A program made the position numbers and the translations under genes. Source: Parcubacteria group bacterium Gr01-1014_8 (GTDB taxonomy: Bacteria; Patescibacteriota; Minisyncoccia; Phycocordibacterales; UBA2100). Taken from it: DNA of 64,000 bases. Under the pieces are notes generated by a model that had not been told where the DNA came from, ran no database searches, and saw only the letters and a program-made list of their open reading frames with translations. The stretch is taken from the NCBI GenBank assembly GCA_007376385.1, contig VMGC01000001.1, positions 343,898-407,897 on the forward strand. Reading direction: 5' to 3'. Below, piece by piece: positions 13,992-31,261 of the stretch (its first letter is position 1; each line of letters starts with the position of its first letter).

Positions 13992-13992
13992 T

Positions 13993-15036: not shown

Positions 15037-16166
15037 ACCGTTTATTTCTCGTAGTAATTGTGTTTATAGCGTTCGCTTTTATGGGATGGCAGGTGTGGGG
15101 CGATGTGGACCCATTTGCTGAGTGTACCGGAGTCCATCGCAACGAATGTCTGGGCGCTGTCCTCAAAGAGATGGCAGATGTGCAGGGGATCGCGGCTGCG
15201 TTCGAGTCATTTACAGAACTTTACGACGAGCCGGATTTCACGAAAGATTGCCATCCAATAGTGCACGAAATGGGAAAAGGCGCATATGAGCGGTACAAAC
15301 GAGGAAAACCACTCGAGGCGGTTCATGAACTTTCCTATTGCAGCTACGGTTTTTATCACGGATTTTTGGAAGCCATGGTACCGGATACTGGAGACCCCAA
15401 AAAGGCTCGTGAGTTGTGCGATAAGTTACAAGATGGCGTGACGGACGGCAGATCAGTTATCGGTCCTTGTCTTCATGGTTTTGGTCATGGGGTGACAGAC
15501 GGCACGAGGCCAGAGCGTTGGGGGAGTTTTGAGACCATGTCTGAGCCTTCGCTCGAGATATGTTCGTCTATCGCGCGACGTGATGATGAAAAAATGCTCT
15601 GTGCAGGCGGAGTTTTCAACGCGATCTCTATCATGTCGCTTTACAAGAAAAATGGGCTTGTCATTGATAAGGTGCATCCATACGCTCCGTGCGAGAAGCA
15701 AACAGATGTGCGTGTCCGTGAGGCTTGCTTTCGGAATTTTCACCCGACAGTTTCTCATATAAATCATGAGCATTTTTTGCTTGCAGCGCACCAGGTTGAG
15801 GCATTAGAGAAGGATGCGGATGCAATTCCCGCGATGGAGAACCTTGCGATCTATCAGTCAAGGAGGATGACCGAAGAATACACGGACCCATATATCGCTG
15901 CCTTTTGTCATCGAGTCCAGCCGCGGTTGCAGAACATGTGCGTAGAAGGTTTCGCGGTAGGTTTTCTTATCTTTGGCACACCAGGCGAAGAATATGAACG
16001 CGCTCTCACGTTCTGTCAGAATACCGAACTTCGCGGTGAACACGAGGAGCATTGCCTCAGACGAGTCATACAGTCTTCGAAGCAGCAATATTCAAGGGAC
16101 GTGTATAAAAAAGTATGCATGAAAGTTCCGAGAGCGTTTCAGTACCTTTGCGAAGAACCCGCGTAA
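15033..16166 (+). CDS. Membrane-anchored Cys/His-rich repeat protein, family member 3 (CSYGFYHGF, CLHGFGHGV)
   Basis: N-terminal TM 'LFLVVIVFIAFAFMGWQVW'. Family motifs. 4-nt overlap with the upstream gene. Confidence 0.65.
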   Translation: MNRLFLVVIVFIAFAFMGWQVWGDVDPFAECTGVHRNECLGAVLKEMADVQGIAAAFESFTELYDEPDFTKDCHPIVHEMGKGAYERYKRGKPLEAVHELSYCSYGFYHGFLEAMVPDTGDPKKARELCDKLQDGVTDGRSVIGPCLHGFGHGVTDGTRPERWGSFETMSEPSLEICSSIARRDDEKMLCAGGVFNAISIMSLYKKNGLVIDKVHPYAPCEKQTDVRVREACFRNFHPTVSHINHEHFLLAAHQVEALEKDADAIPAMENLAIYQSRRMTEEYTDPYIAAFCHRVQPRLQNMCVEGFAVGFLIFGTPGEEYERALTFCQNTELRGEHEEHCLRRVIQSSKQQYSRDVYKKVCMKVPRAFQYLCEEPA

Positions 16167-16230
16167 AGAACCCTGCGACAGAAAGCGTGGGGCGTTCTCG
16201 GCGAGTCCGGTAAAGTACGTTCATTCATTT

Positions 16231-17739
16231 TCATCGGACTTCCAACAACCATGACAGTGCGTTATTCGCGTACGCGTCGCATGCGTCTAGCTCTTCGAAT
16301 CCAAGAGCCTTGCAAATGACGTCGTTCTTGAAGCCCGCAAATTCACGCCAGTGTGTCGCACGCATAAAAAGAGCTCCTAGAAGGCAATTTTGTTGGTCGT
16401 TCGATCCTGGGCCCATCTGACATTTTTCTACTACTTCTGAGTCAGTGAGATTCAGCCATGGGAGAGCGGTGTTGAATCCGATGCCAGTGAAGCACTTATC
16501 CCTGAATCGTGATGGGGCGCGGAGGCATCCCTTGATCGACTCTTCGCTGAAATAACCAGGGCTCCAAACGGTGGATTGATTCAAGTAACAGATCTCAAGC
16601 ATTGGATCGTCTCCAGCAAGTTCGAGGGCATCGCACGGAAAATCAGGCCGTGTTTTATCGAGCCATGTTGTCGTATGTCCGCGTACGCCGAATCCAAGGG
16701 TGACGAATACATTTTCCATGAATGCGCCGTGATAGCACATCTTTTTCCCACGTTCGTACGTGACAAGATCGCGGCACTTTTGCAGCGACAAGGGAAGGTC
16801 ATAATTGTGATACACCATGAGCCCATGGCCGATGACGTGCTCGCAGAAGATGCCTCGCAGCGAGTCAGCATTCTCTTTTAAACACCCCGCCGCATACTTT
16901 TTTACGGTCTCATCGTCTCCGACATTTCCAAGTGATGATTCGATGACACCGTGGTAAAAACCGAATTGGCATCTTGTGTCTATCATCTGTTCATCGAGTA
17001 TTGAGAGGCCGTTCAGCGCGTATGCGATACGGCCTAAAAAGTGTGCCTCCGAATGACACTCTCCCACCGCTACCTGCGAACCTGGATTATCCGGACGCTG
17101 TGAAGGATCCATCGAATCCTTGACCAGTTCATCGAGCATTTTTTCGTATCCGAACACGCGCATCCAATATTCGAGTTCAGCGTCAGTCCTGCTCACCTCT
17201 ATCATATTCAATTTTTCCAACACCGATACTCCAGATCTCGGAAAAAATCTGAAATAGAAATGCATCAGCGACGCATGAAATTTTCGAGCAGGAGATAGCG
17301 CCCCATAACGAGGCAGCTCGGATGGATCTCCGCTCCCCGAATCCTTGACTAGTACCGTACCTGAACGTTCCGGGTCCATGTGGTCATGAAAATTCCACGT
17401 TCCTGCTTGTTTGAATTTAAAGCGGAATGATGCGTCTTGCAGCAGTTCGTGGCAAGAATCGAATCCTTTATACGCGTCAGTGCCGCACTCACGGATATCC
17501 GACCCGGGATATTGTGTATGCGTGGGATGTACGTCAGATGCAATCCAATGAGGTTCGGTGTCTTCATTCACGAAAAGGACGCTTTCTCCTTGGACTATCT
17601 CAACCTGCGACGGTTCAAAACCGCTCGCCGTCATGCGAATCGTAGTGTATGTAGTTTCTGCCGAGAGTGTCTGCGGCAGTGCGCAAAGAATTGATAGCAG
17701 GACGAGAGATGCGTTGGAAGCTGCTGTTTTTTTTGTCAT
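16231..17739 (-). CDS. Secreted protein with an N-terminal cupredoxin-like His-cluster domain followed by the Cys/His-rich repeat domain, family member 4 (CQFGFYHGV, CEHVIGHGL, CYHGAFMEN)
   Basis: Signal peptide 'LVLLSILCALPQTLSA'. N-terminal domain '…VHPTHTQYPG…WNFHDHMDPERSGTVLV' is alignable to ORF 26769..27161 and the N-terminus of 28447..29997. Confidence 0.65.
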   Translation of the reverse strand: MTKKTAASNASLVLLSILCALPQTLSAETTYTTIRMTASGFEPSQVEIVQGESVLFVNEDTEPHWIASDVHPTHTQYPGSDIRECGTDAYKGFDSCHELLQDASFRFKFKQAGTWNFHDHMDPERSGTVLVKDSGSGDPSELPRYGALSPARKFHASLMHFYFRFFPRSGVSVLEKLNMIEVSRTDAELEYWMRVFGYEKMLDELVKDSMDPSQRPDNPGSQVAVGECHSEAHFLGRIAYALNGLSILDEQMIDTRCQFGFYHGVIESSLGNVGDDETVKKYAAGCLKENADSLRGIFCEHVIGHGLMVYHNYDLPLSLQKCRDLVTYERGKKMCYHGAFMENVFVTLGFGVRGHTTTWLDKTRPDFPCDALELAGDDPMLEICYLNQSTVWSPGYFSEESIKGCLRAPSRFRDKCFTGIGFNTALPWLNLTDSEVVEKCQMGPGSNDQQNCLLGALFMRATHWREFAGFKNDVICKALGFEELDACDAYANNALSWLLEVR

Positions 17740-17767
17740 CGAACCCTAGTATAGCGGAAGAAGTTTT

Positions 17768-19348
17768 TCAGGCTACTTCGCGTTTTCTGATGATGAGGAA
17801 CACGATCGAGAGGATGGGAAGTATGAGCACATATTCTCCTAGAAGTGAGTACAGGGTTTTCGTGTCTTTGAGCGGCACTGATGCTGCGAGTATAGAAGGA
17901 GCTGAGTCAGAGCGCATCTCCACTTTTCCGCGGTTTGTGACGATGGAAGATGCCAGCCCGTTTCCTGCGATAGCTATGTAGCGATCATTTTCGACCGCAC
18001 GTACCTTTCCTAGGGAAAGTACGAGGTTGTCTACCAGATGCGATCCATGGAACCACGCCTGTCCGGCTGGATTTACGAATACCCGTGCTCCGCCCTGGGC
18101 AAGTTTCTGGTACAGATTTGGCGAGAGAATATCCGAACAGAAAAGCGCTCCGACTTCTGTTCCGTTGATATGTGCAGGGAACAGTTTTGTTCCTGAAGCA
18201 ACGGAACGTTCCCTCATTGTGCTCTGCTCTGCATCAGACACACCAATAAGGCGGAGCAGCATGGCAAAGAGCCAGGGCGTATATTCTCCCTGTGGCACCA
18301 AGAATATCTTCCGGTATGTTTCAGGCATCAAGGTGCCGTTTTCGTACATACGCATCTGGACGTATCTTTCAGAACCCGTTCTCACCGGACCTGAGTCAAT
18401 GAATGTAACGGCGTGATCGGGAAAAACTAACTTCGCGAATTCAGTCGGGTCTTCGTTACTATGAACGAAAAAATCTGTCGCTTCCGGAAAGACAATGATA
18501 TCCGGCGGCTCATTTTCTTTTGCCCATATTCGTATGTATTCTGCGACTTCGCGTGCATGTTTTCGCTTGACCTCTAACGAATACAGCGAGGTGACAGGCA
18601 TGCTTGTTGAAACGAGTGCGACACGCACCGATCCAGATTCATTTTGAAAAGTCCAACTCGGAAGAGAATAGGCTCTATCAAGAGCCGCAAGAGTCAACGC
18701 TCCGGAGAGGATAAGTGCGAACACGAGCCCTCGTTTTCTCGCGTTTTCATACTGAAAAATTACGTGATACAGAGAAAAGCCGAGAAAGACCGCAAGAAAG
18801 GTCAGTATGTATATGCCGCCAATGGAAGCGGATCGAAGAAAAGGAGAAAAATTAGTAAGAGAATATCCGAGCATCGTAGGTGAGAAGTGCGGGCCGGAAA
18901 ATGAAAGGTCGCGTGCTGTGAGTATGGCAAATCCCCACATTTGCGCGTATTGCAATACTGTCCAAAGAGAAGCGGCAAGCAGTGCGGCATAGAAACCTGA
19001 GCGCTTGGATCGGACAAAGCCAGCCGCAAAGAGTGAGAAAAAGACGGCGAGGACGAGAGTGACCATGAGCCATGAGAACCCTACGAATATGATCCCTTTC
19101 CACGGAGGAGAACCAGTCCAGTCGAGTGGCAACACGTCCCAGAACCATGCTATGGCAGTACCGCTGTAGGCAAAGCCAAAGAGAAGTCCAAGTATTGACG
19201 CATCTCGGTATTGTTTCTCTTGCAGGCGGTGCAATACGTGAGCGAAGGGAATGAGTCCGAATACGGATACCAGCCATATGGACGGGAACAGTATTCCCGA
19301 TGCAGCGATAACGCCTGAGAATATTGCAAGCAAACCAAAGACTACCAT
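17768..19348 (-). CDS. lnt: Apolipoprotein N-acyltransferase-like protein (N-terminal polytopic membrane domain plus C-terminal CN-hydrolase/nitrilase domain)
   Basis: Multiple N-terminal TM helices. CN-hydrolase signature with Glu in 'IIVFPEATDF' and Cys in 'GALFCSDILSP'. About 526 aa, typical of Lnt. Confidence 0.6.
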   Translation of the reverse strand: MVVFGLLAIFSGVIAASGILFPSIWLVSVFGLIPFAHVLHRLQEKQYRDASILGLLFGFAYSGTAIAWFWDVLPLDWTGSPPWKGIIFVGFSWLMVTLVLAVFFSLFAAGFVRSKRSGFYAALLAASLWTVLQYAQMWGFAILTARDLSFSGPHFSPTMLGYSLTNFSPFLRSASIGGIYILTFLAVFLGFSLYHVIFQYENARKRGLVFALILSGALTLAALDRAYSLPSWTFQNESGSVRVALVSTSMPVTSLYSLEVKRKHAREVAEYIRIWAKENEPPDIIVFPEATDFFVHSNEDPTEFAKLVFPDHAVTFIDSGPVRTGSERYVQMRMYENGTLMPETYRKIFLVPQGEYTPWLFAMLLRLIGVSDAEQSTMRERSVASGTKLFPAHINGTEVGALFCSDILSPNLYQKLAQGGARVFVNPAGQAWFHGSHLVDNLVLSLGKVRAVENDRYIAIAGNGLASSIVTNRGKVEMRSDSAPSILAASVPLKDTKTLYSLLGEYVLILPILSIVFLIIRKREVA

Positions 19349-20217
19349 CGTAAAGATCCGCGATAATCAGCGAGTCGGATGGAAAAGACGATATGCAGGA
19401 TCGCCCAGATATAAAAGAAGAGCGGAGGGAATACATACGCGAGTACGATAGAACCCCACGCGGTATATGCAAATAGCGCATACAGAGCAAAAACAATGGC
19501 ATGGATCGCAAGCATATCCTTCACATATGCACTTTGACGGTCAGGCTTGCTTCCGAATCGAAAATAAAAGTGCACGTACCAGCATACGTAATGCAGCAGA
19601 ATGACCGAGCCGGTGAGTTTTGTCGATGAAACTTGAATGTCAAAAAACCACAACGCAAATAGTCCTGCGGTGATAAGCAAAAGATACGCACTCAGTGCAT
19701 CAGGACGGTATGTTCCGATCGCAATGCTCGCGACATAGGGAACTAGCAACACGATCGCGAGCATGACAAGAGACGAAGAGAATGTGGCTCCCAACATATA
19801 TCTTGAGATAAGAGCTGTGAAAAGAAGCACTGGCGGCAACTGTTCAAGAGCGCGAGAGAGAGAACGTTCCTTCCCGAAGAGCGTCACTTCATCCTGAAAA
19901 TGATGTATGAAAAACACTACAGAAGCGACGAGAGCAAACCATGCTACTTGATCCGTTAGAATGGCAAGTGTGAACAGTGCAGTTGTAAGAGTAACGAATG
20001 CAGCGACCCACGTCATCGTCATCTTACCGGCTTTCCATTGGTAGTAGTATGCCCCGAGAAAATGACCTTGGCCGAAGATACTGAATGCGAGTCCGACCTG
20101 CAGGGGAGAAAGGTAGTAAACCGCAAGCGCGACAATGGCGAGGCCAAGCGATTTTTGTATGACCAATTCACGTGTCATAGTAGAAGTATGGTAGCACATA
20201 CTGGCATATGAAATCAC
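19342..20217 (-). CDS. Polytopic integral membrane protein (8-9 predicted TM helices), function unknown
   Basis: Highly hydrophobic helices throughout. Overlaps lnt-like by 7 nt. The true start may be an internal Met (e.g. at 20178). Confidence 0.45.
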   Translation of the reverse strand: MISYASMCYHTSTMTRELVIQKSLGLAIVALAVYYLSPLQVGLAFSIFGQGHFLGAYYYQWKAGKMTMTWVAAFVTLTTALFTLAILTDQVAWFALVASVVFFIHHFQDEVTLFGKERSLSRALEQLPPVLLFTALISRYMLGATFSSSLVMLAIVLLVPYVASIAIGTYRPDALSAYLLLITAGLFALWFFDIQVSSTKLTGSVILLHYVCWYVHFYFRFGSKPDRQSAYVKDMLAIHAIVFALYALFAYTAWGSIVLAYVFPPLFFYIWAILHIVFSIRLADYRGSLRW

Positions 20218-21407
20218 ATCTTATTTTGATCGTGGGAGGCATAGGGCTATTTTTGCTTGGTATTTTTTTCATAGTCTCTATGCCAGTAGGTGCAATCGTC
20301 GTCGAAGACGTCGTTGAAGATCTAGGGGAATGTCTCCACGAGAATCAGGCAGAATTAGAGAGTTTTCCATGCGTGAGGGAGAAAATACAGTCGCTTCTTC
20401 TCGAATTGCCTGCGCATGAGATCATGCGTGCGGTTGAAGCGTCGTTTCCATATCAGTGTCATGCTGTTGGTCATATTCTCGGGCAAGAAACGTACAAGAT
20501 GCTCGGCTCAGTGGAAAGCGCCTTCGGAGCATGCTCTCCTGCCTCGTGCGTTCACGCGTGCACACACGGAGTTGTCGGGGAAGTCTTTCTCTCTACACCC
20601 GGGATAGGAGGATTGCCAGAAGAATGGAGGCATCCGAACATCGACTTGATACGCTCGGAAGGCTCTTTGCTTTGCAGGGATAGAACGACATGTCATGCGG
20701 TCGGTCATGTACTTTTTTTACTTTTTTTTGAGGACCTCTCAGGTGCGCTTTCTATGTGTGATGAAATCGCAGGAGATGAGGCATTTACATGTCACAGCGG
20801 CATATTTATGGAGAATGGTGGCGGGACATTTGCGCGCACGATCCCTGGCTTAGATGTTGAGCGGGAAGAGTATCGTGACCCCACTGATCTTCTTTCTCCC
20901 TGCAATACGGTCGCTGACCGCTACAAAAAGGCATGCTTTAGATTCTTGTATATAAATCAATATGACTATTTTAAGGATCACGGCATTACTGATCCGCATA
21001 CGATCTTCAACACGCAGACGGATGCCTGCGGTATTGTCACGGATCGTTTGCAGCGCAGAGCATGTTTCAGAAGCGTGGGCTGGTCTCTCCAGGGGATGCG
21101 CCGACCGCTTCTTTCCGCGCACGTGCTCTGCAACTCGCTGACTGTCATAGAGGATCGCAGTGCATGTCTTTTTGGCGTGAGCGATTCATTCACGGATCAG
21201 GGTATGAGCATCTCGGAAACCGGAGGGGCGTGCAGAGCAGTAAACAATGAGCAAGGCAAACGCGCATGTTATGGAGGAATTTTCATGGCACTTTCAGACA
21301 GAGAACCTGGTCTTCTCCCAAGCGTGTGCGATGGCGCTTCTGACAGCGCATGTCAAATGTCGTTGCAGGAATTTTTAGCGAATCCAGACAGTCGTGATTC
21401 TATTTAG
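20208..21407 (+). CDS. Membrane-anchored Cys/His-rich repeat protein, family member 5 (CHAVGHILG, CTHGVVGEV, CHAVGHVLF, CHSGIFMEN)
   Basis: N-terminal TM 'LILIVGGIGLFLLGIFFIVSMPV'. Family motifs. Confidence 0.65.
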   Translation: MKSHLILIVGGIGLFLLGIFFIVSMPVGAIVVEDVVEDLGECLHENQAELESFPCVREKIQSLLLELPAHEIMRAVEASFPYQCHAVGHILGQETYKMLGSVESAFGACSPASCVHACTHGVVGEVFLSTPGIGGLPEEWRHPNIDLIRSEGSLLCRDRTTCHAVGHVLFLLFFEDLSGALSMCDEIAGDEAFTCHSGIFMENGGGTFARTIPGLDVEREEYRDPTDLLSPCNTVADRYKKACFRFLYINQYDYFKDHGITDPHTIFNTQTDACGIVTDRLQRRACFRSVGWSLQGMRRPLLSAHVLCNSLTVIEDRSACLFGVSDSFTDQGMSISETGGACRAVNNEQGKRACYGGIFMALSDREPGLLPSVCDGASDSACQMSLQEFLANPDSRDSI

Positions 21408-21433
21408 ACACTATTTACTCAATTGTTGGCACA

Positions 21434-22549
21434 ATGAGTCACATGATACAGCGTCTCACAGTGGGTGTGCTCGTGGCTGTTCTATCAGCGTTAGGAAGTG
21501 TCTTCTGGTTTCTGTACAACGAACCCCCTCATCATTGTCTGAAAGAAGAAAACGTACGGTGGTGCTTCATACACGAGGCGCAAGCTATTGCCGCAATAGA
21601 GGGAGCACAGAAGGCATATTCATATGTGCACGATGTCATTAAAAAATATAGCGATTATAAGACCGAACACCTGGCACTTCATTATGTTGGTATGAAGGCA
21701 TATGACGAAGCGGGATCAGTAGACAAGGCTTTTACGCTCATCTATGGGGAAGATCAGATGGCTGATGATTCGATATATTACAGCGGTTTTCAACACGGGC
21801 TCTTCGAGCGATATTTTGAGGTGAATGGAGCACAGACACCGACTGTGCTCGGGAATGAGACGTGTCACACATATGCTTCATCGGAGTCCCTCGATGAGTT
21901 CACCAGTACCCGCACGCGAGTGCTCGCAGCGGAATGCTATCACGCGATCGGTCACGCGATAATGTTCATATCTGACAATAATGTTGAGGCATCACTTTCG
22001 GCATGTGACGCGTTCCCTCATCAATGGGAGCAACGGTGGTGTTACCATGGAGTGTTCATGGAGAATTATTATCTACACATTCCCGAATATCATCTCGGCG
22101 TCGCACGGCCGGATGCCGAAGGGCTTTCTGTAGTCGAGCTTTGCATGCGCGTTGGGGAAAAATATCGGGGAGAGTGCAGTTATTTCGTGGGCTGGGTGTA
22201 TATGCAAATGCATCCAAACGACTTTGCCGGAGCATTTTCCGAATGCGCGATGTTTCCGCAGAGTGATGCAAGGATATGTATCGCACGCGTGGGACGTTTT
22301 TTTGTAGCCGCATCGTCCGCAGGCGATCTCTCGGGCATGATCGCAACGTGTGAGAAGGCGCACCCATTCCTGCGTGAATGTTTGTACGGAACAGCCATCG
22401 GATTGAACCAGGGAGTGGGTTTGTTTGAATATGTCAATAAAGGCAAAGGGCTATGTGATGTTCTTGAGGACGATATGCACGCGGATTGTGAAAACGCCCT
22501 GACACGGTCTCATGAAAGTCTTGCGCGGAAAGTAATAACCGAACTCTGA
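21434..22549 (+). CDS. Membrane-anchored Cys/His-rich repeat protein, family member 6 (CYHAIGHAIMF, CYHGVFMENY)
   Basis: N-terminal TM 'LTVGVLVAVLSALGSVFWFLY'. Family motifs. Confidence 0.65.
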   Translation: MSHMIQRLTVGVLVAVLSALGSVFWFLYNEPPHHCLKEENVRWCFIHEAQAIAAIEGAQKAYSYVHDVIKKYSDYKTEHLALHYVGMKAYDEAGSVDKAFTLIYGEDQMADDSIYYSGFQHGLFERYFEVNGAQTPTVLGNETCHTYASSESLDEFTSTRTRVLAAECYHAIGHAIMFISDNNVEASLSACDAFPHQWEQRWCYHGVFMENYYLHIPEYHLGVARPDAEGLSVVELCMRVGEKYRGECSYFVGWVYMQMHPNDFAGAFSECAMFPQSDARICIARVGRFFVAASSAGDLSGMIATCEKAHPFLRECLYGTAIGLNQGVGLFEYVNKGKGLCDVLEDDMHADCENALTRSHESLARKVITEL

Positions 22550-22563
22550 CTGGAGGGTCCCTT

Positions 22564-23004
22564 TTAGGGTCGTGGGAACGGCTCACCGATAAGGAGGTAG
22601 GAGAGCACCAATTGTCCTTGTGGGTTGATATATACAGAACCGTATCCATGTGTACCCGGGACGACGTCGTCAATCGTAGCCGGGGTTGTCGAACTAGTGC
22701 CAACGACCGCGCCGTTCTCGATTATCACATCCCTGCGTTCTACGAAGAAGTCAGGGGCGAGGGAATACAAAGTCGGGACATCCAGGTTAACGCTGGGTAT
22801 CCGCGTAATCCCTACCAATTTCCGATGCTCGAGGTCTATAGAGTACACGGTGAGAAATTCCGAGAATGCTAAAAAGCCGAAGATCTTCTCTGGCGCTGTC
22901 ATGGCGCTAAGACGTTCGCGATAAACATAGAGTTCTTCGCCGGCGATGATGGTCGCGGATAGGACAAGGGATAGACAGCCGAGAATGATTGGAAGTCTGT
23001 TCAT
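22564..23004 (-). CDS. Small secreted protein, unknown function
   Basis: Signal peptide 'MNRLPIILGCLSLVLSATIIAG'. 146 aa. Confidence 0.45.
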   Translation of the reverse strand: MNRLPIILGCLSLVLSATIIAGEELYVYRERLSAMTAPEKIFGFLAFSEFLTVYSIDLEHRKLVGITRIPSVNLDVPTLYSLAPDFFVERRDVIIENGAVVGTSSTTPATIDDVVPGTHGYGSVYINPQGQLVLSYLLIGEPFPRP

Positions 23005-23420
23005 GATCCTATACGTTTGGTGATGGTTATGTCCGTAGCGCGGAGCGTCCCCATTGTCTGCAGGTCTCTATTCACGCGTACGGTTGCTCCGGGCGGTAAG
23101 GGGATCATTTTTCCTATTATGAATCTCTTCTCTTCCATGATACCCGCTCTGAACACATATTCTACAGATGACCACCTCGTGGCGTCATCGTATACGAATT
23201 CTACTGTAACTCGCGGTTCTGCAATCGAGTAGCTACTCAGAGTTGAAACACGAAGCACGTGATCGGCGAGACGGTGATCAGTTACGATCCCATAATATGT
23301 ACGCTCAGCATGCATTCCGTCTCGTGGTAGTGTAGGCATGAAAACATTAACGCCGAAAGACAATACGTATCCGCAGGCTCCCCCAAGAATTATCGGCAGC
23401 GCGTATCTTAGGGCGATATG
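23001..23420 (-). CDS. Small secreted protein, unknown function (start trimmed to internal Met 'MHIALRYALPIILGGACGYVLSF')
   Basis: The listed ORF 23001..23618 extends 5' through a repeat element. The signal-peptide-like Met at 23420 is a more plausible start. Confidence 0.35.
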   Translation of the reverse strand, partial: HIALRYALPIILGGACGYVLSFGVNVFMPTLPRDGMHAERTYYGIVTDHRLADHVLRVSTLSSYSIAEPRVTVEFVYDDATRWSSVEYVFRAGIMEEKRFIIGKMIPLPPGATVRVNRDLQTMGTLRATDITITKRIGS

Positions 23421-23446
23421 CATCGAGTAATTATAGCTCGTAGTAA

Positions 23447-23600
23447 AGGTTCCTCGGAGCAAGCTCCGAGGTATTATGGAGCTCGCTTCGCTCGCGCAGT
23501 CTCGCAGCAGAGCTGCGAGATATTGAACCTGTGTTTGCTCCTCGGCTCGGAAATGCAAAAGTGCTCTTTTGCGTTTCTCTCGCAACGCTCGCAAATAAAG
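23447..23600. repeat. MITE-like intergenic hairpin repeat, copy A (reverse orientation relative to copy B at 28385). Contains palindromes cctcggagc…gctccgagg and gaaatgc(a)aaag…cttttgcgtttc, plus a ~50-nt palindromic insertion.
   Basis: The reverse complements of 23447-23475 and 23525-23569 match 28420-28448 and 28389-28418 near-exactly. Confidence 0.6.
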
Positions 23601-23674
23601 CGCATGAGGGCGACCCATTTATGCGTATCGTTCTTCGCATCGTATTTGCTTGACATAGGCGTGCAGAATATGAT

Positions 23675-25285
23675 GTGCACAACATGCAACGCATCAGTGC
23701 TTTATTGCTGGTACTTGTACTCGGCTCTTATGCAATGTATTACGCCATTCCGGAGGACGTATCCAACGTATCATGTGATAACTGCAATCTTGTGATCATC
23801 ACGTTGGATAGCGTGAGGTTGGATCACATGGCTTTGTATGGTTATGAACGCTCGACAACCCCGAACATCGACAACTTCGGACAGGGCGCGTTGGTATTCA
23901 CTAATTATTTTTCGACGAGTTATTTGACGCCTGTTAGTGCATTTTCAATGCTCACTGGCAGATATCCTTTCAGCAATGGCGTCGTCAGTTTTTATTCATA
24001 TTTGCGCGACGATGTTACTTCACTTGCGGAGACCCTACAGGCGGAGGGGTATCGTGCTGCGGCGTTCGGTTCTTCTCCAGAGTACGAACTCTTTCCTTCA
24101 CTCAAAGAAAGCGGGATGCGAGGTTTCGATGTGTATAAAACTTTTACGTCTGATGATCCAGATATATTGCCCAGTCGTTCGCAGGTTCCAGTAGAGGAAG
24201 CAATTGCCTGGGCCGAAGATTCTTCGCAGCCGTTTTTTTTATGGATGCCGATCGGCGCTGCGCACTGGCCATATGATCCATTTGAAGAACGAACTTTTAC
24301 CGATGCAGGTTACGACGGGTTTCTGCGGAATTTACCTTCCGGTTTTAAGACCTATAGTCAGATATATAAGGGGACATATTATCCGATACGTGAGGGGACA
24401 ATGCCGAATGTCCGCCAGTCTCTGCATCTGCCGGAATATTCTTCCCGACATACCGAAGAGGTCGATCTGCTCCTTGAGTGGGGACCATCTGCAACTACCT
24501 CATTGAATGCGGAGGACCTTGAATACGTTCGAGGTCGCTACGACGACGGACTGCTATTCATGGATCGCATCGTCGGCGACATAATTGCAACTCTCGAAGA
24601 AAAACATTTGGATCGGGATACCATCATAATTATTGAATCGGTGCATGGTGAAGAATTGGGCGAGCGCGGTGTCATTGGGCACTATGATATTGATGAAGCA
24701 ACGATACGAAGTCCGTTGATGATCAAGGTGCCTGGAGCGCGTTCGCGCCGCATCGACGCTCTTATCTCTGGAGTCGACATCTATCCGACCGCGCTAAGTA
24801 TGTTGGGAATCGATATGGCTATGCGCGATGGGATAGACTTTGTACCATTTCTTTCCGGAGTGACCTCAACAGAACCTCGGCAAGAAGTATTCCTTACGCG
24901 CACGCCACTTTTCGAGACGCTCTATACGGTCGAAGGGGATAGCATGACATCTGCTCGTTACGAGCGATTGCGCTCTGAGGATGCGCGCATGCATTATCAC
25001 GATAGCGCGATCCGTACGAACGAATGGAAGCTCATTCATCGCACTAGCAGAGTGGCGTTGTCACGTTATTCATGGTGGCAGTATCTCACTGGGAATATTG
25101 AAAATATCCCAGAATACGAGCTGTATTTTCTTCTTGACGATCCTCTTGAGACAACGAATCTGTATAACGAGCGTCCTGACATTGCGACGCCATTGCAGGA
25201 GCGCTTGAGCGCGTGGGAGAATACGCAGGCGAGTGATCGCAATCTATTAAAAATGCAAGATACGATACGGCAGGAATACTTTTAA
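23675..25285 (+). CDS. Sulfatase-fold (alkaline phosphatase superfamily, PF00884-like) membrane-anchored enzyme with Thr at the nucleophile position
   Basis: N-terminal TM. 'CNLVIITLDSVRLDH' metal-binding N-terminal motif. 'LTPVSAFSMLTGRYP' aligns to the sulfatase C(T/S)PSRAALLTGRYP signature with Thr replacing Cys/Ser. 'ESVHGEELGERGVIGHYD' C-terminal motif. Confidence 0.65.
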   Translation: MHNMQRISALLLVLVLGSYAMYYAIPEDVSNVSCDNCNLVIITLDSVRLDHMALYGYERSTTPNIDNFGQGALVFTNYFSTSYLTPVSAFSMLTGRYPFSNGVVSFYSYLRDDVTSLAETLQAEGYRAAAFGSSPEYELFPSLKESGMRGFDVYKTFTSDDPDILPSRSQVPVEEAIAWAEDSSQPFFLWMPIGAAHWPYDPFEERTFTDAGYDGFLRNLPSGFKTYSQIYKGTYYPIREGTMPNVRQSLHLPEYSSRHTEEVDLLLEWGPSATTSLNAEDLEYVRGRYDDGLLFMDRIVGDIIATLEEKHLDRDTIIIIESVHGEELGERGVIGHYDIDEATIRSPLMIKVPGARSRRIDALISGVDIYPTALSMLGIDMAMRDGIDFVPFLSGVTSTEPRQEVFLTRTPLFETLYTVEGDSMTSARYERLRSEDARMHYHDSAIRTNEWKLIHRTSRVALSRYSWWQYLTGNIENIPEYELYFLLDDPLETTNLYNERPDIATPLQERLSAWENTQASDRNLLKMQDTIRQEYF

Positions 25286-25293
25286 ATGATCTT

Positions 25294-26715
25294 ATGATGT
25301 TGCTCTTTCCATCTAAAAAACATGCATTTGTTGTGGTGGGGTGTATCGTGATGCTCGCGGTCGCGACATTTTTCATACTTCGAGGAGGAGACGATCTCTC
25401 GTGCAGAGAGTGTAATGTAATTATCATTGGCGTCGACACACTCCGGGCGGACGCGTTGCATAGTCTTGGATATGAGCGTGAGACCACTCCGACCCTTGAT
25501 GCGCTCGCCAATAAAGGTGTCATTTTCTCACAGGCAATCTCTGCATCGAGCTGGACGGTGCCATCATTCATGTCGATCTTTACGGGTATGTATCCCTCGG
25601 CGCACAAGGTGACAAATAAATTCGTAAAATTTTCAAAAGACGCGAAGATACTCACAAATCTTAAAGATATTGATCCTGAGATCGAAACGTTCGCGATGAT
25701 CATGAAGAACGCAGGCTACGCAACCGGAGGCTTTACGGGGGATGCAGGAGTCTCAGCACAGTTCGGATACGGACAGGGGTATGATATATATACCGACGAA
25801 AAAACCTTCGGCGGATTTGAGAATAGCGAGCAACATGCCTTGAAATGGCTGGATACTCTGGACTCCAAACAAAAGTTCTTTATGTTCTTCCATGGTTATG
25901 ATCTGCATGGGCAACATGATCTAGATGACGATTCGTCCAGGGAATTTGTTCCTGAATATTCAGGGACGTACAAAGGCACGAAAGAAGAAGAGGCAATTAT
26001 CCGTGAACAGCAACTGGAATGGGGAGGATTGTCACTCACGCCGGGGGACGTAGCATTCTGGCGGGGCATATATGACAGCAAGATCAAAGACGCAGATACG
26101 CGGCTTGCCAGTTTTATCGCGGAACTCGAAAAGAGGGGTCTTCTCAAAAATACGGTCATAGTTTTAGTGTCTGACCACGGAGAAGAGTTTTATGAACATA
26201 AAGGCATTGATCACGGACACTCTTTATATGATGAACAGGTTCATGTGCCTTTGATACTCATCGTTCCGGGTATGACCGGCGGAAGAAGGGTCGATGCGCA
26301 AGTAAGTACAATGGATATCGCTCCTTCAATTCTCGATATCCTCAACATCGCACCGAGCGCAGCTTTCGAAGAACAAACCGCTTTGAGACGCAGTCTTGTG
26401 CCGTATATTCTTGGATTGGAATTTCGCGGGTACGATATTTTTACCGAGACGGATTATCGCAACTCACGGCATCTTCGTTCAGTGCGTACCGCAGACGGGT
26501 GGAAGTACATACTCGATCTCGAAAGTAAACACGAAGAGCTTTATGACCTTCGCAATGATCCAGGTGAGTTAAAGGATTTAGCATCGAGCGAGGTAAAAAA
26601 GCGTGACGAGACTAGAAGAAGACTTCTCACTCACATGCGGGATGAACTTCATCAGACTTTGGATCAAGAAATACGCACTGATTGTCTCCCGGTATATGTT
26701 GGAGAGTGCGAGTAG
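25294..26715 (+). CDS. Sulfatase-fold (alkaline phosphatase superfamily) membrane-anchored enzyme, paralog with Thr at the nucleophile position
   Basis: N-terminal TM. 'CNVIIIGVDTLRAD'. 'SSWTVPSFMSIFTGMYP'. 'SDHGEEFYEHKGIDHGHSLYDEQVHVPLILIVPG'. Confidence 0.65.
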   Translation: MMLLFPSKKHAFVVVGCIVMLAVATFFILRGGDDLSCRECNVIIIGVDTLRADALHSLGYERETTPTLDALANKGVIFSQAISASSWTVPSFMSIFTGMYPSAHKVTNKFVKFSKDAKILTNLKDIDPEIETFAMIMKNAGYATGGFTGDAGVSAQFGYGQGYDIYTDEKTFGGFENSEQHALKWLDTLDSKQKFFMFFHGYDLHGQHDLDDDSSREFVPEYSGTYKGTKEEEAIIREQQLEWGGLSLTPGDVAFWRGIYDSKIKDADTRLASFIAELEKRGLLKNTVIVLVSDHGEEFYEHKGIDHGHSLYDEQVHVPLILIVPGMTGGRRVDAQVSTMDIAPSILDILNIAPSAAFEEQTALRRSLVPYILGLEFRGYDIFTETDYRNSRHLRSVRTADGWKYILDLESKHEELYDLRNDPGELKDLASSEVKKRDETRRRLLTHMRDELHQTLDQEIRTDCLPVYVGECE

Positions 26716-26768
26716 TACTATCGATAGGGAAAATATATCTATTATCTGACAGATGATACTATGCGTTC

Positions 26769-27161
26769 ATGCGAGGGACGCAGGTTTTCGATAATATGTC
26801 GCTGACATATATTCTTGTTTCCGTACTCCTCTTTGTATTGGTAGTAACTTCTGTTCTGTATCTAAAGAAAGGGGATGTCCAGGATGTAAGGAAGCAAATT
26901 ATTCTTGAGCAACAAGGATTTCAGCCGAGTGAGCTCACTGTCAAAAAAGGAAGCACGGTAACATTCACTACGACCGCCGCGCGACAGTTCTGGCCGGCTT
27001 CAAATTTGCATCCAAGTCATGACATCTATCCTGATTTTGACGCGAAGCGGCCTCTTGAGAGCGATGAAGTATGGAGCTTCACTTTCAATACAGCAGGCGA
27101 TTGGCCATTTCATGATCACATCCGATCATACTATGTTGGTGTCGTACACGTAATCGAGTAA
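26769..27161 (+). CDS. Small membrane-anchored cupredoxin-like domain protein with a conserved His cluster (HPSH…FHDH)
   Basis: N-terminal TM. 'GFQPSELTVKKGSTVTFTTT…WPASNLHPSHDIYP…WPFHDHIRSYYVGVVHV'. Homologous to the N-terminal domains of ORFs 16231..17739 and 28447..29997. Confidence 0.55.
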   Translation: MRGTQVFDNMSLTYILVSVLLFVLVVTSVLYLKKGDVQDVRKQIILEQQGFQPSELTVKKGSTVTFTTTAARQFWPASNLHPSHDIYPDFDAKRPLESDEVWSFTFNTAGDWPFHDHIRSYYVGVVHVIE

Positions 27162-27175
27162 AGTGGAAGCTGTAT

Positions 27176-28375
27176 ATGCGTTTGTATATGAAGATAAGTG
27201 TCCTCTCAGCATTCTTGTTTGTGGGGCTCGCAGTGTTTTTCTTTATGCCGGGTACTCGGATGGCGCGCGCGGCAGAGGCCTGTTCCACCGGGCACGAAAA
27301 ACAAGATGAGCAGATACAATGCTGGCTCGATATCATGCGTGCGGAAATGAGAGATGATGGAATAGGAGCCGCAATGAAGGTCTTTTCGTACGTATACAAC
27401 ACGTACCCCACATTCTCAGCTACAGGCTGTCATGTGCACGCGCATCGCGTGGGCGATATGGCGTATTATGAATTTTATCTTGCGAATCCTGATCTTGATG
27501 CTCTGGAATTTCCGCAAGAGACGGCAAGTTGCGGGTATGGCTTCTATCACGGCTTTTTCGAGCATCTTATTCAGGATAATCCCGATCCGTCATACATAAC
27601 GTCCACATGCACATATTTTCATGAGCGGCTCGGGCACATGCTCGGCGACATGAGACAGATCTGCTATCACGGGAGCGGGCATGGACTTATGCTTGCGAGA
27701 ACAGAAGAAGTAACGAACGATGATTGGGGGAATGCACAGGCGTTCGCAACAAAGCCGCTCGAACAGTGCGAGAAACTTTCTGAGGCGACAGTGCGTGAAA
27801 AAGAAGAATGTCGTGAGGGGATCTATAATGTGCTTGTTGATTGGATGGAGGGGAAAGAGTATGGATTTGTCTACAACGACATCCACCCGTTCGCAGTTTG
27901 CGATGAGCTTCAAAATTACGATTGGAAAAAGGCATGTTACTACGAAATGTCCCAGAAATTGGACCGAGTATCGGCACGTGACCCTGTGCAGCTTGTCAAA
28001 ATTATTGCTCCGATACAGGACCCGAAATTACAACGCACCGCATTGTTGGTAGGTATCGCGGGAATGATGCAGTCAGTTGCAAACACCAATGCGTACGAAT
28101 CCTTCATGCGTACGTGTGCGCAATTGGGCGAGAAGTCCAGGAACGACTGTGCCATCGGCGTCATTTCCGGGCTCTTCGAGCACGGGCTTCCTCAGGAAGA
28201 GTATGTGAATGCCATACGCGCATGTCGTCTCGAGGAAATTGGATCATCCGGGATGGCTGCTTCGTGCTGGAAAGAGGTTTCGAATAAATTAATACGTTTT
28301 TATACCCCCCAGCGTGTGCAAGAGATCTGTCCAGAATTTCCAGAGGAATACCGATCTCTGTGCAGCAAGAAATGA
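27176..28375 (+). CDS. Membrane-anchored Cys/His-rich repeat protein, family member 7 (CHVHAHRVG, CGYGFYHGF, CYHGSGHGL)
   Basis: Signal/TM 'ISVLSAFLFVGLAVFFFMPG'. Family motifs. Confidence 0.65.
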   Translation: MRLYMKISVLSAFLFVGLAVFFFMPGTRMARAAEACSTGHEKQDEQIQCWLDIMRAEMRDDGIGAAMKVFSYVYNTYPTFSATGCHVHAHRVGDMAYYEFYLANPDLDALEFPQETASCGYGFYHGFFEHLIQDNPDPSYITSTCTYFHERLGHMLGDMRQICYHGSGHGLMLARTEEVTNDDWGNAQAFATKPLEQCEKLSEATVREKEECREGIYNVLVDWMEGKEYGFVYNDIHPFAVCDELQNYDWKKACYYEMSQKLDRVSARDPVQLVKIIAPIQDPKLQRTALLVGIAGMMQSVANTNAYESFMRTCAQLGEKSRNDCAIGVISGLFEHGLPQEEYVNAIRACRLEEIGSSGMAASCWKEVSNKLIRFYTPQRVQEICPEFPEEYRSLCSKK

Positions 28376-28384
28376 AGAGCCTCT

Positions 28385-28590
28385 TTTATTTCCGAGCCGA
28401 GGAGCAAACACAGGTTCAATACCTCGGAGCTTGCTCCGAGGAACCTTTATCTGTCGAGGATAGCAAGCGAAATGCGAAAGTGCAGGTTTCGCATTTCCGA
28501 GCGACACAGACAGCAAAGGTTCAAAGCCCCGCGGCTTGCCTGCCTGTGCGATGCACGCAGACAGGCCGCGGAATTTGGGACGCATAACCC
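28385..28590. repeat. MITE-like intergenic hairpin repeat, copy B (ttccgagccgaggagcaaacacaggttc + tacctcggagcttgctccgaggaacc + gaaatgcgaaagtgcaggtttcgcatttc hairpin)
   Basis: Matches the reverse complement of copy A at 23447-23600. Lies between convergent genes 27176..28375 and 28447..29997 and overlaps the 3' end of the latter ORF. Confidence 0.6.
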
Positions 28591-29997
28591 TTCAACAAGC
28601 TGCGGGTCGGATGCCTTTGCAAATACGAGCACGATCTTTTGGCACTGCAGAAGCTCTTGCTCTAACGTAAATTGGCCGCAAAATGCAATGGAGTGCCGTG
28701 CGCCCTTTTCAGGTGTCTCACGATGGAAGAAACCCGACACAACGCCGAGAATGCATGCTGCCCATTCTTCTTGATCCATGAGTTGACTGCACTCTTTTGC
28801 CAGATGCGTGAATTCTGGCTCACCGACGCGGCGCCGTACCTCGTCATTTATAAGCGCTTGCATTGATTCGAGCCGTGCTGCCTTTACGGGTATCTGTCTT
28901 AGTAACGAGAAACCGTCTTCAAGTGAGTATTTGTTGTGGCGGATGTATCCGACACCGATCTCTATGGCGCATCCCGTCCAATATTCTGGCACTGCCCTGC
29001 AAACACCGAGGGGATCGTCATGCCTGAACGAGATCCCGTATTCACCGGAACCAAGAGCTATTGAGAGCGAATTGAATACGCCGGAAGCACACCGTGTTCT
29101 TTCCCACTCTGGTTGAATTGCGCTCTCGCATGAGAGGAGTGCGCTTTTCGCCATTTTGTATTCGTCACCCCACTTGGTTGAATCAATAGAGTCGAACAGT
29201 GCATGTCCGATGCCGTGATAACACGCGCCGACAGCATTGTGCCGTGATGTTGGCGTTCCTAGATGTGTGCTATCTCGCATCTTTTCGCAGTAGGCAACGG
29301 TTTGAGCGACTCCCTCATCTCCTGTGTCGCGAAGGGCTTGTTCCATGAATCCATGATAGAAACCGAAATTGCAATACGTGGTTTCTATCCTGTCAGCGAC
29401 AGCGCCTCCGGCTTTGTATAGTTGATATGTCTGTATGCCGATATAGTGCGAAACGTCGTGACAATTTCTCTGAAATAACGGATCCTCAGCATTCCACTTT
29501 TCGAAAGCGTCGAACACTGCGTCGAGTCCTCCTTTCTTAAGAATACGGTCTATTTCACCGTCCCAGCAGTAGGCTTTTATTGTGTCGGTCGAGGAGTCGA
29601 GACATGCTTCGACACTTTCTCCTTCATATCCTAGGACGATAATTCTTCCCTGCACCATTGGGTGCATATGATCGTGGAATGGCCAGACCCCTGCACGCGA
29701 AAAAGTAAATTCCCATGGATCACCGGGCTGAATCGCGTGTGTTGGGTCGAAATCCGAATAGCGTCCATGGGACGGATGAGAATCCGACGCAGGCCACGAA
29801 TCTGATATCGATGAATTAACGAAGATGACCGTGTCACCTTTGTTGATAGTAAGCCTCTCAGGCGAGAATCCGGTATTGGTTCTTGTGATGGTGTATGTCT
29901 GCGGAGAAAGATATGCGTATGCCATTCCTGCAAGAACCGCGACAGCAAGAAAAATAACTGCCAAAAGCTTAACAGAAAGAGAAAAATGCGCGCGCAT
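28447..29997 (-). CDS. Secreted protein with an N-terminal cupredoxin-like His-cluster domain plus the Cys/His-rich repeat domain, family member 8 (CNFGFYHGF, CYHGIGHAL)
   Basis: Signal peptide 'LLAVIFLAVAVLAGMAYA'. '…WPASDSHPSHGRYSDFDP…WPFHDHMHPMVQGRIIVLG'. The C-terminal ~45 codons read through the repeat element, so the true stop may be earlier. Confidence 0.6.
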   Translation of the reverse strand: MRAHFSLSVKLLAVIFLAVAVLAGMAYAYLSPQTYTITRTNTGFSPERLTINKGDTVIFVNSSISDSWPASDSHPSHGRYSDFDPTHAIQPGDPWEFTFSRAGVWPFHDHMHPMVQGRIIVLGYEGESVEACLDSSTDTIKAYCWDGEIDRILKKGGLDAVFDAFEKWNAEDPLFQRNCHDVSHYIGIQTYQLYKAGGAVADRIETTYCNFGFYHGFMEQALRDTGDEGVAQTVAYCEKMRDSTHLGTPTSRHNAVGACYHGIGHALFDSIDSTKWGDEYKMAKSALLSCESAIQPEWERTRCASGVFNSLSIALGSGEYGISFRHDDPLGVCRAVPEYWTGCAIEIGVGYIRHNKYSLEDGFSLLRQIPVKAARLESMQALINDEVRRRVGEPEFTHLAKECSQLMDQEEWAACILGVVSGFFHRETPEKGARHSIAFCGQFTLEQELLQCQKIVLVFAKASDPQLVEGLCVPNSAACLRASHRQASRGALNLCCLCRSEMRNLHFRISLAILDR

Positions 29998-30085
29998 ATG
30001 CCCCTAGTATACGATGCCCGTTCAGGTTGTTTTTTAACGACTCTTGGGGCAGAATGGCATCCTCGTGGGGTAGCGCCCTTGCTTT

Positions 30086-31261
30086 ATGAAGTTCAGACTG
30101 AGTGTCTATATATGGCCTATTATCGCTGCGGCAGCGTTGCTCGGGGGCGCCTTTTTCTACGTTAATTTTTCCTCGCGTGCTGAAGCTGCAGCCATAGTCG
30201 AAACATGTAAAAAGGAGCCAGACAACATGTTCTGTTACGAACGCGAAGTGCCGAAGCTGTATTCTTCTTACTCGATCCCGGAACTATTTGAATTCATCCG
30301 CGAGATCCGTCGTCTCGATCCGTCGTATCAGTTTTGCCATGTACTTGCGCATAAGCTCGGCGAAGAGGCCGTTGCAGAAGACCCGTCGCGCTGGCTGGAT
30401 ATGATCCCTCTGAACCCGCGTGATGGAATGTGCAGCAACGGATTCATTCATGGCGTCATCGTAGGCAGGTTTCGCAATGACACGCTCGACAAGGAAACGC
30501 TCGAGAAAACGATACCTGATCTTGCGAGGGCGTGCGAACCGCGGGCGAACTGGTCTCCCAGTTCGTTGGACCAAGCGATTTGCTATCACGGCATGGGCCA
30601 CCTTTTTATGTTCATAACGAACGCTGACATGCGGCTCTCGCTGGATACGTGCGCACGCATATCGCGAAGTGCAACTGGGGATTTTATGCGCGTCTGCCGA
30701 GAAGGCGTATTCATGCAAACATATCAGCCGCTTGAGCCGGACGATTTTGCTCTGCTAGAATTACTTCCTGAAAAACCGACGAAAGAAAATTACCGGCGCT
30801 TATGCGCAGCGTACGCGAACGATCCAGAAGAAGGAGCGTGTCTTCGGGAAGCGTGGCCGTTCTTCCGCACCGACATTCTTAAAGGAACTGGTGCCATCAG
30901 TTTTTGCTCAGGACAACCAACCAAGGAGGAGGAAGAGATGTGCTACGAATCGGCTTCAACTATCATAGGAAGACAGCTTCTCGGGAACGATGAAAAAGCA
31001 AGTGCGGCGTGTGATGCTCTTCCTCAGAAATGGCAGAGCATATGCTACATTGCGGCTGCTCAAGCACTGCTGGAAGAAGATAGGGCGACGGGGAAGGCTG
31101 CAATTTCTCTCTGCGAGAGAGGAAAGAATGGTGTTGCTGATACCTGCTTAAAGACACTTGCGATGCGAGCAAACTGGATATTTTCAAGCGGTGCAGCGGA
31201 AAAGGACGCATTTTGCGAGGCATTGCCGCGATTCAAGGAGGAGTGCGATCGGCGGCGCTAA
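30086..31261 (+). CDS. Membrane-anchored Cys/His-rich repeat protein, family member 9 (CHVLAHKLG, CSNGFIHGV, CYHGMGHLF)
   Basis: TM 'VYIWPIIAAAALLGGAFFYV'. Family motifs. Confidence 0.65.
   Translation: MKFRLSVYIWPIIAAAALLGGAFFYVNFSSRAEAAAIVETCKKEPDNMFCYEREVPKLYSSYSIPELFEFIREIRRLDPSYQFCHVLAHKLGEEAVAEDPSRWLDMIPLNPRDGMCSNGFIHGVIVGRFRNDTLDKETLEKTIPDLARACEPRANWSPSSLDQAICYHGMGHLFMFITNADMRLSLDTCARISRSATGDFMRVCREGVFMQTYQPLEPDDFALLELLPEKPTKENYRRLCAAYANDPEEGACLREAWPFFRTDILKGTGAISFCSGQPTKEEEEMCYESASTIIGRQLLGNDEKASAACDALPQKWQSICYIAAAQALLEEDRATGKAAISLCERGKNGVADTCLKTLAMRANWIFSSGAAEKDAFCEALPRFKEECDRRR

Follow-up and report, generated by a model that had tools for sequence, protein, structure and literature searches.

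Described cupredoxins differ in the residues with which they hold metal. Type-1 proteins, such as plastocyanin, amicyanin and the purple cupredoxin Nmar_1307 of Nitrosopumilus (5fc9), use the ligand set His...Cys-x(n)-His-x(n)-Met/Gln. In multicopper oxidases (MCOs; H-C-H) and in NirK (H135-C136), the residues that flank the type-1 Cys ligate type-3 and type-2 copper, respectively, and CupA-type copper chaperones have Cys and Met residues that bind Cu(I). Cys-less cupredoxins have also been described. In FtrB, a conserved Asp is required for binding of Cu2+, Glu residues (E84, E86 and E93) bind an Fe2+ mimic, and the protein has weak Fe2+ oxidation activity (PMC11966278). Here we compare these systems with a membrane-anchored, Cys-less cupredoxin of 130 residues that is encoded at 26769-27161(+) in a 64-kb stretch of DNA (the window) from Parcubacteria group bacterium Gr01-1014_8, a candidate-phyla-radiation (CPR) bacterium. 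The domain has lost the type-1 ligands, conserves a different set of His and Asp residues, and is almost always fused to, or encoded next to, members of a Cys/His-rich family (CH). The fold is known; the ligand set and CH as the partner are new.

A cupredoxin fold without the type-1 ligands

The window encodes three copies of one domain of ~90 residues, as had been noticed in the initial annotation. The first is the product of the free-standing open reading frame (ORF) at 26769-27161(+), which is identical to NCBI protein G01um10148_353 (P0001 in our set) and gives the residue numbering used below. It consists of a transmembrane (TM) helix (residues 8-33; 26790-26867(+)) and a beta domain (residues 43-129; 26895-27155(+)). 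The second copy is the N-terminal domain (residues 30-133; 17341-17652(-)) of a 502-residue fusion encoded by ORF 16231-17739(-), and the third is the N-terminal domain (residues 33-122; 29632-29901(-)) of a 516-residue fusion encoded by ORF 28447-29997(-). A hidden Markov model (HMM) of the family finds exactly these three in the window (E = 8e-47, 5e-39 and 8e-36). Their identity in an alignment is 32-41%, and pairwise BLAST gives 45% identity over 80 residues (E = 1.7e-25) and 33% over 98 residues (E = 2e-16), a similarity that far exceeds chance. W75, A77, S78, H81, P82, H84, F90, D91, F114, H115, D116, H117 and G124 are among the residues common to all three copies. Most of these fall in two motifs, which read WPASNLHPSH (26991-27020(+)) and FHDH (27108-27119(+)) in the free ORF, WIASDVHPTH (17518-17547(-)) and FHDH (17380-17391(-)) in the 502-residue ORF, and WPASDSHPSH (29767-29796(-)) and FHDH (29668-29679(-)) in the 516-residue ORF. 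No Cys is common to the three. A Cys pair is found in the 502-residue copy only, within an inserted loop of 12 residues (DIRECGTDAYKGFDSC) that recurs in some homologs (P0087, P0186 and P0187); this copy also retains a His in the column of the classical N-terminal ligand (EPHW).

The domain has the fold of the cupredoxins (a Greek-key beta-sandwich of 7-8 strands that can be superimposed on plastocyanin or azurin). AlphaFold2, supplied with 92 homologs, modeled the free protein with a predicted local distance difference test score (pLDDT) of 88.5, as a helix at residues 8-33 and a beta domain at residues 43-129. Foldseek matches this model to the purple cupredoxin 5fc9, plastocyanins and amicyanins (E~1e-7), and a profile of the three copies matches amicyanin and plastocyanin in the PDB (E = 1.5e-5 and weaker). 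Because both the model and the matches are cupredoxin, the concern raised in the initial annotation that the fold might be absent can be set aside. The Pfam family Cupredoxin_1 (PF13473; cut-off 27 bits) scores the two fusions above its cut-off (27.9 bits for the 502-residue and 32.1 for the 516-residue protein) and the free ORF below it (21.5 bits). PF13473 is a broad, fold-level family (e.g., the copper-bound B. anthracis protein 4hcf) and is silent on the ligand set found here.

The domain appears to lie outside the cytoplasmic membrane, held there by a TM anchor or sent there by a signal peptide. This location is predicted from the export signals, which are cleavable signal peptides in two members (P0183 and P0184) and an N-terminal TM helix in others, and from disulfide-like Cys pairs in the fused CH domain.

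Loss of the type-1 site is evident in 281 domains of the family, a set for which H84, H115 and H117 served as selection criteria. The type-1 columns were mapped by an HMM alignment to amicyanin, in which His53 corresponds to column 74, Cys92 to column 116 (D116), His95 to column 119 and Met98 to column 122. Column 116 is Asp in 94% of the domains, Asn in 6% and never Cys. Column 74 is Phe in 51% and His in 23%; column 119 is Arg, Ala, Ser or Asn, with His in 4%; and column 122 is Phe or Tyr. The ligand set of the type-1 proteins was thus not found, in keeping with the initial annotation, which had argued from the missing Cys that there is no type-1 copper site. Scores were also far from those of type-1 proteins, at 14.7-20.7 bits for the NCBIfam models of plastocyanin (TIGR02656) and amicyanin (TIGR02657), with cut-offs of 87.85 and 110.2, and 12.8-14.3 bits for PF00127, with a threshold of 21.2. 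As judged from its sequence, the domain can have no Cys-ligated site.

The domain nonetheless looks like a descendant of the type-1 blue copper proteins in which the blue site has decayed. This view is based on the alignment of D116 with the ligand Cys92 of amicyanin and of column 74 with His53, on the Cys that canonical cupredoxins have in column 116, and on a vestigial 'PH' that a minority of members retain. The canonical sequences in question are repeats in long tandem-array proteins that the family HMM also matches; they have Cys in column 116 and gaps at columns 81 and 84. Matches of 700-1,166 residues with 5-10 matched stretches had been candidates for arrays of the Cys-less family and were rejected as such, since they are these Cys-containing repeats.

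In place of the type-1 ligands, the family has a nearly invariant set of His and Asp residues. Among the 281 domains, conservation is 98% for W75, 95% for P76, 98% for A77, 99% for S78, 99% for H81, 98% for P82, 96% for F90, 98% for D91, 98% for G110 and 94% for D116, with Asn in the rest. An independent alignment of 92 sequences has H84 in every sequence and H115 and H117 in at least 90%. The His singled out in the initial annotation are therefore conserved in homologs. Two features separate this set from the type-1 proteins, and both are new. The first is the stretch W75-P-A-S-N-L-H81-P-S-H84 (WPASxxHPxH in the family), a family-specific insertion of 10 residues that starts just past the column of the classical N-terminal His ligand. 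The second is F114-H115-D116-H117, in which D116 takes the position of the type-1 Cys with a His on either side. In the secondary structure of the model, the penultimate strand ends at H115-D116 and H117 lies in a two-residue turn ahead of the last strand, and thus the long type-1 ligand loop, whose His and Met positions are unconserved in the family, is gone and only a tight turn is left.

The His set appears to be intrinsic to the domain and not imposed by CH, because it is kept where CH is missing. It is retained in two genomes without a nearby CH gene (L005 and L007), represented by an archaeal contig, on which an ArsR-type regulator adjoins the gene, and a Terrybacteria contig. The motif is also retained in tandem proteins that have two cupredoxin domains and no CH domain (P0182 and P0186).

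Association with the CH family

We examined 78 loci from different species, containing 141 cupredoxin ORFs and 321 CH ORFs (~4 CH copies per 12 kb). In 85 of the 141 cupredoxin ORFs the domain is fused to CH, and a further 45 have a CH ORF within 400 nt. Counted by locus, 72 of the 78 have CH fused or within this distance and six do not. The order cupredoxin gene, then CH gene, is found in many of these loci (e.g., L002 and L004). In L002 the two genes overlap, and there are further CH paralogs and an Lnt-like gene (with a CN_hydrolase Pfam match) positioned as in the window. The initial annotation had suggested a functional partnership from fusion and adjacency within the window and had asked whether homologs elsewhere are fused as well. 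They are, and the counts over 78 loci strongly support the partnership.

The window alone has nine CH paralogs within 18.5 kb (12801-31261), two of which are fused to the cupredoxin domain. A gap of 15 nt separates the free cupredoxin gene from the gene at 27176-28375(+), which lies downstream and encodes an all-alpha, TM-anchored protein with the five conserved His and the conserved Cys of the family; this protein is presumed to be the trans partner of the free cupredoxin. The fused CH domains comprise residues 123-516 of the 516-residue protein (28450-29631(-)) and residues 134-502 of the 502-residue protein (16234-17340(-)). Three paralogs that overlap or abut lie at 12801-13991(+), which is divergent (hmmsearch E = 1.6e-23), 13933-15036(+) (E = 3e-92) and 15033-16166(+) (E = 7e-127). 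Two more are at 20208-21407(+) (E = 2e-107) and 21434-22549(+) (E = 3e-109), and the ninth is at 30086-31261(+) (E = 3.5e-122).

Conservation within CH was determined from 485 unique sequences and is given in the numbering of P0093. Five His (H180, H184, H215, H261 and H265) are each 98% conserved; they occupy three consecutive helices, arranged as i/i+4 pairs or partners. Five Cys (C259, C290, C303, C333 and C343) are 100% conserved. Other Cys columns are variable and co-vary in pairs (132-144, 179-209, 403-415, 440-452 and 472-484; phi 0.68-0.89), which suggests that CH contains disulfides and fits an extracytoplasmic location. We also considered storage of Cu(I) by Csp-like thiolates and rejected it, because the variable Cys come and go two at a time, in the manner of disulfides. 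A model of a fusion protein (pLDDT 93.1; predicted template modeling score [pTM] 0.89) indicates that the cupredoxin and CH domains are confidently placed relative to each other. No relatives of CH were found in Pfam, NCBIfam or PDB sequences, and a homolog search returned only proteins named 'hypothetical'.

Two further associations give hints about chemistry. In P0410, encoded on a high-GC and apparently non-CPR contig (L011, 8001-9455), a cytochrome c domain (CGDCH) is fused to a CH domain. Here a heme carrier takes the place that the cupredoxin has in Patescibacteria, which hints at a one-electron carrier as the working partner of CH domains. The second association is with an immunoglobulin (Ig)-like domain of ~115 residues, here called H1, that is present in 29 of the 78 loci (L009 at 6387-6872, L030, L025, L087 and 25 others). 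It often directly follows a free cupredoxin gene and usually has a C-terminal TM helix; 20 free cupredoxin ORFs adjoin H1 or are fused to it, with H1 at the N-terminus of the fusions (P0205, P0211 and others). In all 29 H1 ORFs a His directly follows the signal-peptide cleavage site (AxA|HGxGxSxE...GYxVDIGY...FTDVWVR), and in an alignment of 14 sequences this His1, D18 and W52 are invariant and E9 is at least 90% conserved. Histidine-brace copper proteins are characterized by an N-terminal His. H1 has only sub-threshold matches to Ig-like domains (filamin, PKD and Big), and CopC, YcnI and PCuAC are not matched. H1 was also searched for in the window and is absent from it.

A candidate copper module and its alternatives

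We propose, with about even confidence, that the domain is an extracytoplasmic copper module of a type-2-like, non-blue kind, built on a cupredoxin scaffold, and that it serves CH proteins by electron or metal transfer. Four His, possibly together with Asp, would hold one copper ion. A hint towards copper comes from FtrB, likewise Cys-less, in which binding of Cu2+ depends on the conserved Asp. Two of these ligands would be the His around the former Cys position (H-D-H), and two would come from the inserted loop after strand 4. This HPxH loop might fold back beside H115 and H117, completing a His4(+Asp) site within one domain. The site would then be located at or near the 'northern' end of the beta-sandwich, near where MCOs and NirK use Cys-flanking His. 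We picture CH as a disulfide-stabilised alpha-solenoid in which the five His presumably form a second metal site. The cupredoxin module would act with CH in cis, when fused, or in trans, when the genes are adjacent, and would supply the CH domain with electrons or with the metal itself. Where H1 accompanies the pair, in other genomes of the clade, it may, with its mature N-terminal His, be a copper chaperone. We infer that the His form one joint site and that the metal is copper, and likewise the direction and nature of the transfer.

The proposed site can be compared with those of MCOs and NirK. In both of these, His flank the position of the type-1 Cys, and the family has H-D-H where they have H-C-H. 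These residues of the family stand in the context W-x-(F/Y)-H-x-H, which is similar to WFHPH of the MCOs, and hhalign aligns WPFHDH to W-F-H141-P-H143 of CueO. MCOs also have the motif HPxHLHGH, the start of which is resembled by the HPxH of the family. However, the unit described here has one cupredoxin domain and no second one to complete an interfacial cluster. Its additional His come from an insertion in its own domain, and its partner is alpha-helical rather than a cupredoxin. Matches to Cu-oxidase_3 in relatives were weak and below threshold (E = 0.009-0.04).

Several points weigh against a copper transfer module. Kinship with MCOs was considered and rejected as resemblance only, hhalign giving a probability of 0.4% and E = 0.14 against CueO. 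There is no copper transporter, oxidase, reductase, NirK or respiratory gene in the window, where the neighbors are Lnt, sulfatase-like and housekeeping genes. Sites made only of His also bind Zn, Ni or Fe, and type-2 sites are poor dedicated electron carriers next to type-1 sites. Lastly, the abundance of CH paralogs fits a role in binding or surface variation at least as well as that of an enzyme.

The copper module might also belong to something larger, although we regard this as doubtful. In this extended form, the Cys-less cupredoxin, CH and H1 would make up an undescribed, three-part, heme-free extracellular copper redox system found across Patescibacteria. The cupredoxin would have a His4(Asp) copper where MCOs and NirK place catalytic copper, completed within one domain, and would do what the cytochrome c domain does in the single non-CPR relative found. 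CH, with a metal centre of five His (and perhaps Cys), would be the catalytic or substrate-binding part, and a site of the histidine-brace type in H1 would load the copper.

The main rival is that the domain handles metal without redox chemistry, as a surface chaperone, buffer or sequestering protein for Cu, Zn or Ni in a role like that of CopC, CupA or PCuAC, with CH and H1 as further metal binders. We consider this a real possibility, if not a probable one. The fusion of cytochrome c to CH favors electron transfer over buffering, no metal transporter lies nearby, and the tight 1:1 fusion to CH and the conserved geometry of the modeled pair suggest a composite functional unit instead. The Cu(I)-binding Cys and Met residues of the CupA-type chaperones are not found in the family.

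It is unlikely that the domain is free of metal and that the patch of His, Asp and Trp is a protein interface or an acid-base site on a degenerate scaffold, comparable to copper-free CyoA and SufI. Four near-invariant His and an Asp arranged as HxxH and HxH are a typical pattern of metal ligands, and the set is kept both where no CH gene is nearby and in tandem cupredoxin proteins that have no CH domain.

It is improbable that the domain is a ferroxidase that, as a Cys-less cupredoxin of the FtrB or EfeO Cup kind, oxidizes Fe2+ for a permease of the Ftr1/EfeU type. The initial annotation had listed EfeO-Cup among possible relatives, and this suggestion did not hold up, as hhalign aligned only 30 N-terminal residues with E. 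coli EfeO, with a probability of 7.7%. Unlike FtrB (Cup-II; PDB 8vuk) and the EfeO Cup domain (7wgu), the family lacks the D-x-x-H pair, the Glu cluster and the permease context, and FtrB in turn lacks the four conserved His of the family. Only 4% of domains have a His three positions after the Asp, where FtrB has H121, there is no Glu among the nearly invariant residues, and neither the window nor the gene calls for the contexts examined include an Ftr1/EfeU permease.

Very improbable, too, is surface protection by a copper-only protein like superoxide dismutase (SOD), with a His4 Cu on a Greek-key sandwich as in Cu,Zn-SOD. In SOD1, four His bind the Cu, among them an HxH pair on a beta-strand, and 43% of the free-standing proteins of the family have an Arg after the HDH motif. 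However, this Arg is unconserved in fused copies, SOD is not among the listed fold matches, and such a role leaves the obligate link to the many CH paralogs unexplained.

An ordinary blue copper electron carrier of the plastocyanin or amicyanin type, delivering for example to NirK, is scarcely credible. In its favor, JGI labels many homologs 'plastocyanin', single-domain cupredoxins of Patescibacteriota have been taken as 'pcy' carriers to NirK (PMC12931201, 2025), and plastocyanin and amicyanin give the strongest structural matches. Against it, every one of the 281 domains has Asp or Asn where the ligand Cys would be, the other type-1 positions are unconserved, the NCBIfam scores lie far under their cut-offs, and the window has no NirK or respiratory gene. 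For members of this family, the database label 'plastocyanin' is probably wrong. As their sequences do not permit a blue copper site, inferences of carriers to NirK need to be re-checked gene by gene.

The change from Cys to Asp and the four new His, fixed over more than 1,000 sequence clusters, amount to a natural experiment in bioinorganic chemistry. The change has one parallel in the engineered 'type 2 / type zero' variants of azurin and another in evolution, in the passage from electron-transfer sites to catalytic copper sites with His ligands. For CH, which is among the most expanded surface protein families of the very small CPR genomes, the fusions to cupredoxin and to cytochrome c are a first functional handle.

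The family in other genomes and the genes around it in the window

The family is large. An exhaustive profile search of 1.84 billion representatives of clusters at 50% identity places 6,483 clusters at E<=1e-10, and 1,182 of them pass the stricter limit of E<=1e-30. The peptide pattern WPAS[ND]xHPxH occurs in at least 599 places in GTDB species representatives, 570 of which were confirmed. Most of the best 80 of these places are labeled as Patescibacteria or a lineage thereof, and the labels of the rest are generic or were assigned automatically; altogether, nearly all of the 80 either have such a label or look like Patescibacteria. An archaeal metagenome-assembled genome contributes one relative. 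The majority of members have the architecture of the free protein, a TM helix and the domain in ~130 residues. Others have the domain followed by CH (~490 residues), this unit twice, two CH domains followed by two cupredoxin domains, or two cupredoxin domains; in a further architecture, an N-terminal H1 domain is followed by two TM helices and the cupredoxin domain.

Annotation of these proteins is uneven. About half of the homologs have no precomputed Pfam match. The JGI name 'plastocyanin' is attached to P0005, P0009, P0012 and others, and elsewhere homologs are called 'cupredoxin domain-containing protein'. A literature search on cupredoxins in Patescibacteria and Parcubacteria, on Cys-less cupredoxins and on 4HCF found nothing on the family.

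In the window, cell-envelope genes are interleaved with the cupredoxin and CH genes. They encode the apolipoprotein N-acyltransferase Lnt (17768-19348(-); 143.6 bits) and two sulfatase/LtaS-like proteins (23675-25285(+) and 25294-26715(+)).

An inverted-repeat element of ~50-120 nt, with the GC hairpin CCTCGGAGC-AAG-CTCCGAGG, is present at 23444-23561 and 28381-28449. Its arms match over 51 nt at 90% and over 32 nt at 100%. Between the two occurrences lies a 4.8-kb segment with the free cupredoxin gene, the CH gene next to it and both sulfatase-like genes. The element may mark past mobility, or it could be a shared terminator or a repetitive extragenic palindrome (REP)-like sequence. At its 3' end, ORF 28447-29997(-) enters the right repeat arm with its last ~35 codons (28447-28560(-)). 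The 516-residue fusion that it encodes is 100% identical to the 490-residue P0093 from another assembly except in the tail. The tail of P0093 (GKIDAQEHIPECSNQSSY) is encoded nowhere in the window, and the mismatch suggests that strains or assemblies differ at the 3' end of the gene. Upstream of the whole cluster is a very long ORF of 2,941 residues that begins with TTG (31-8856(+)).
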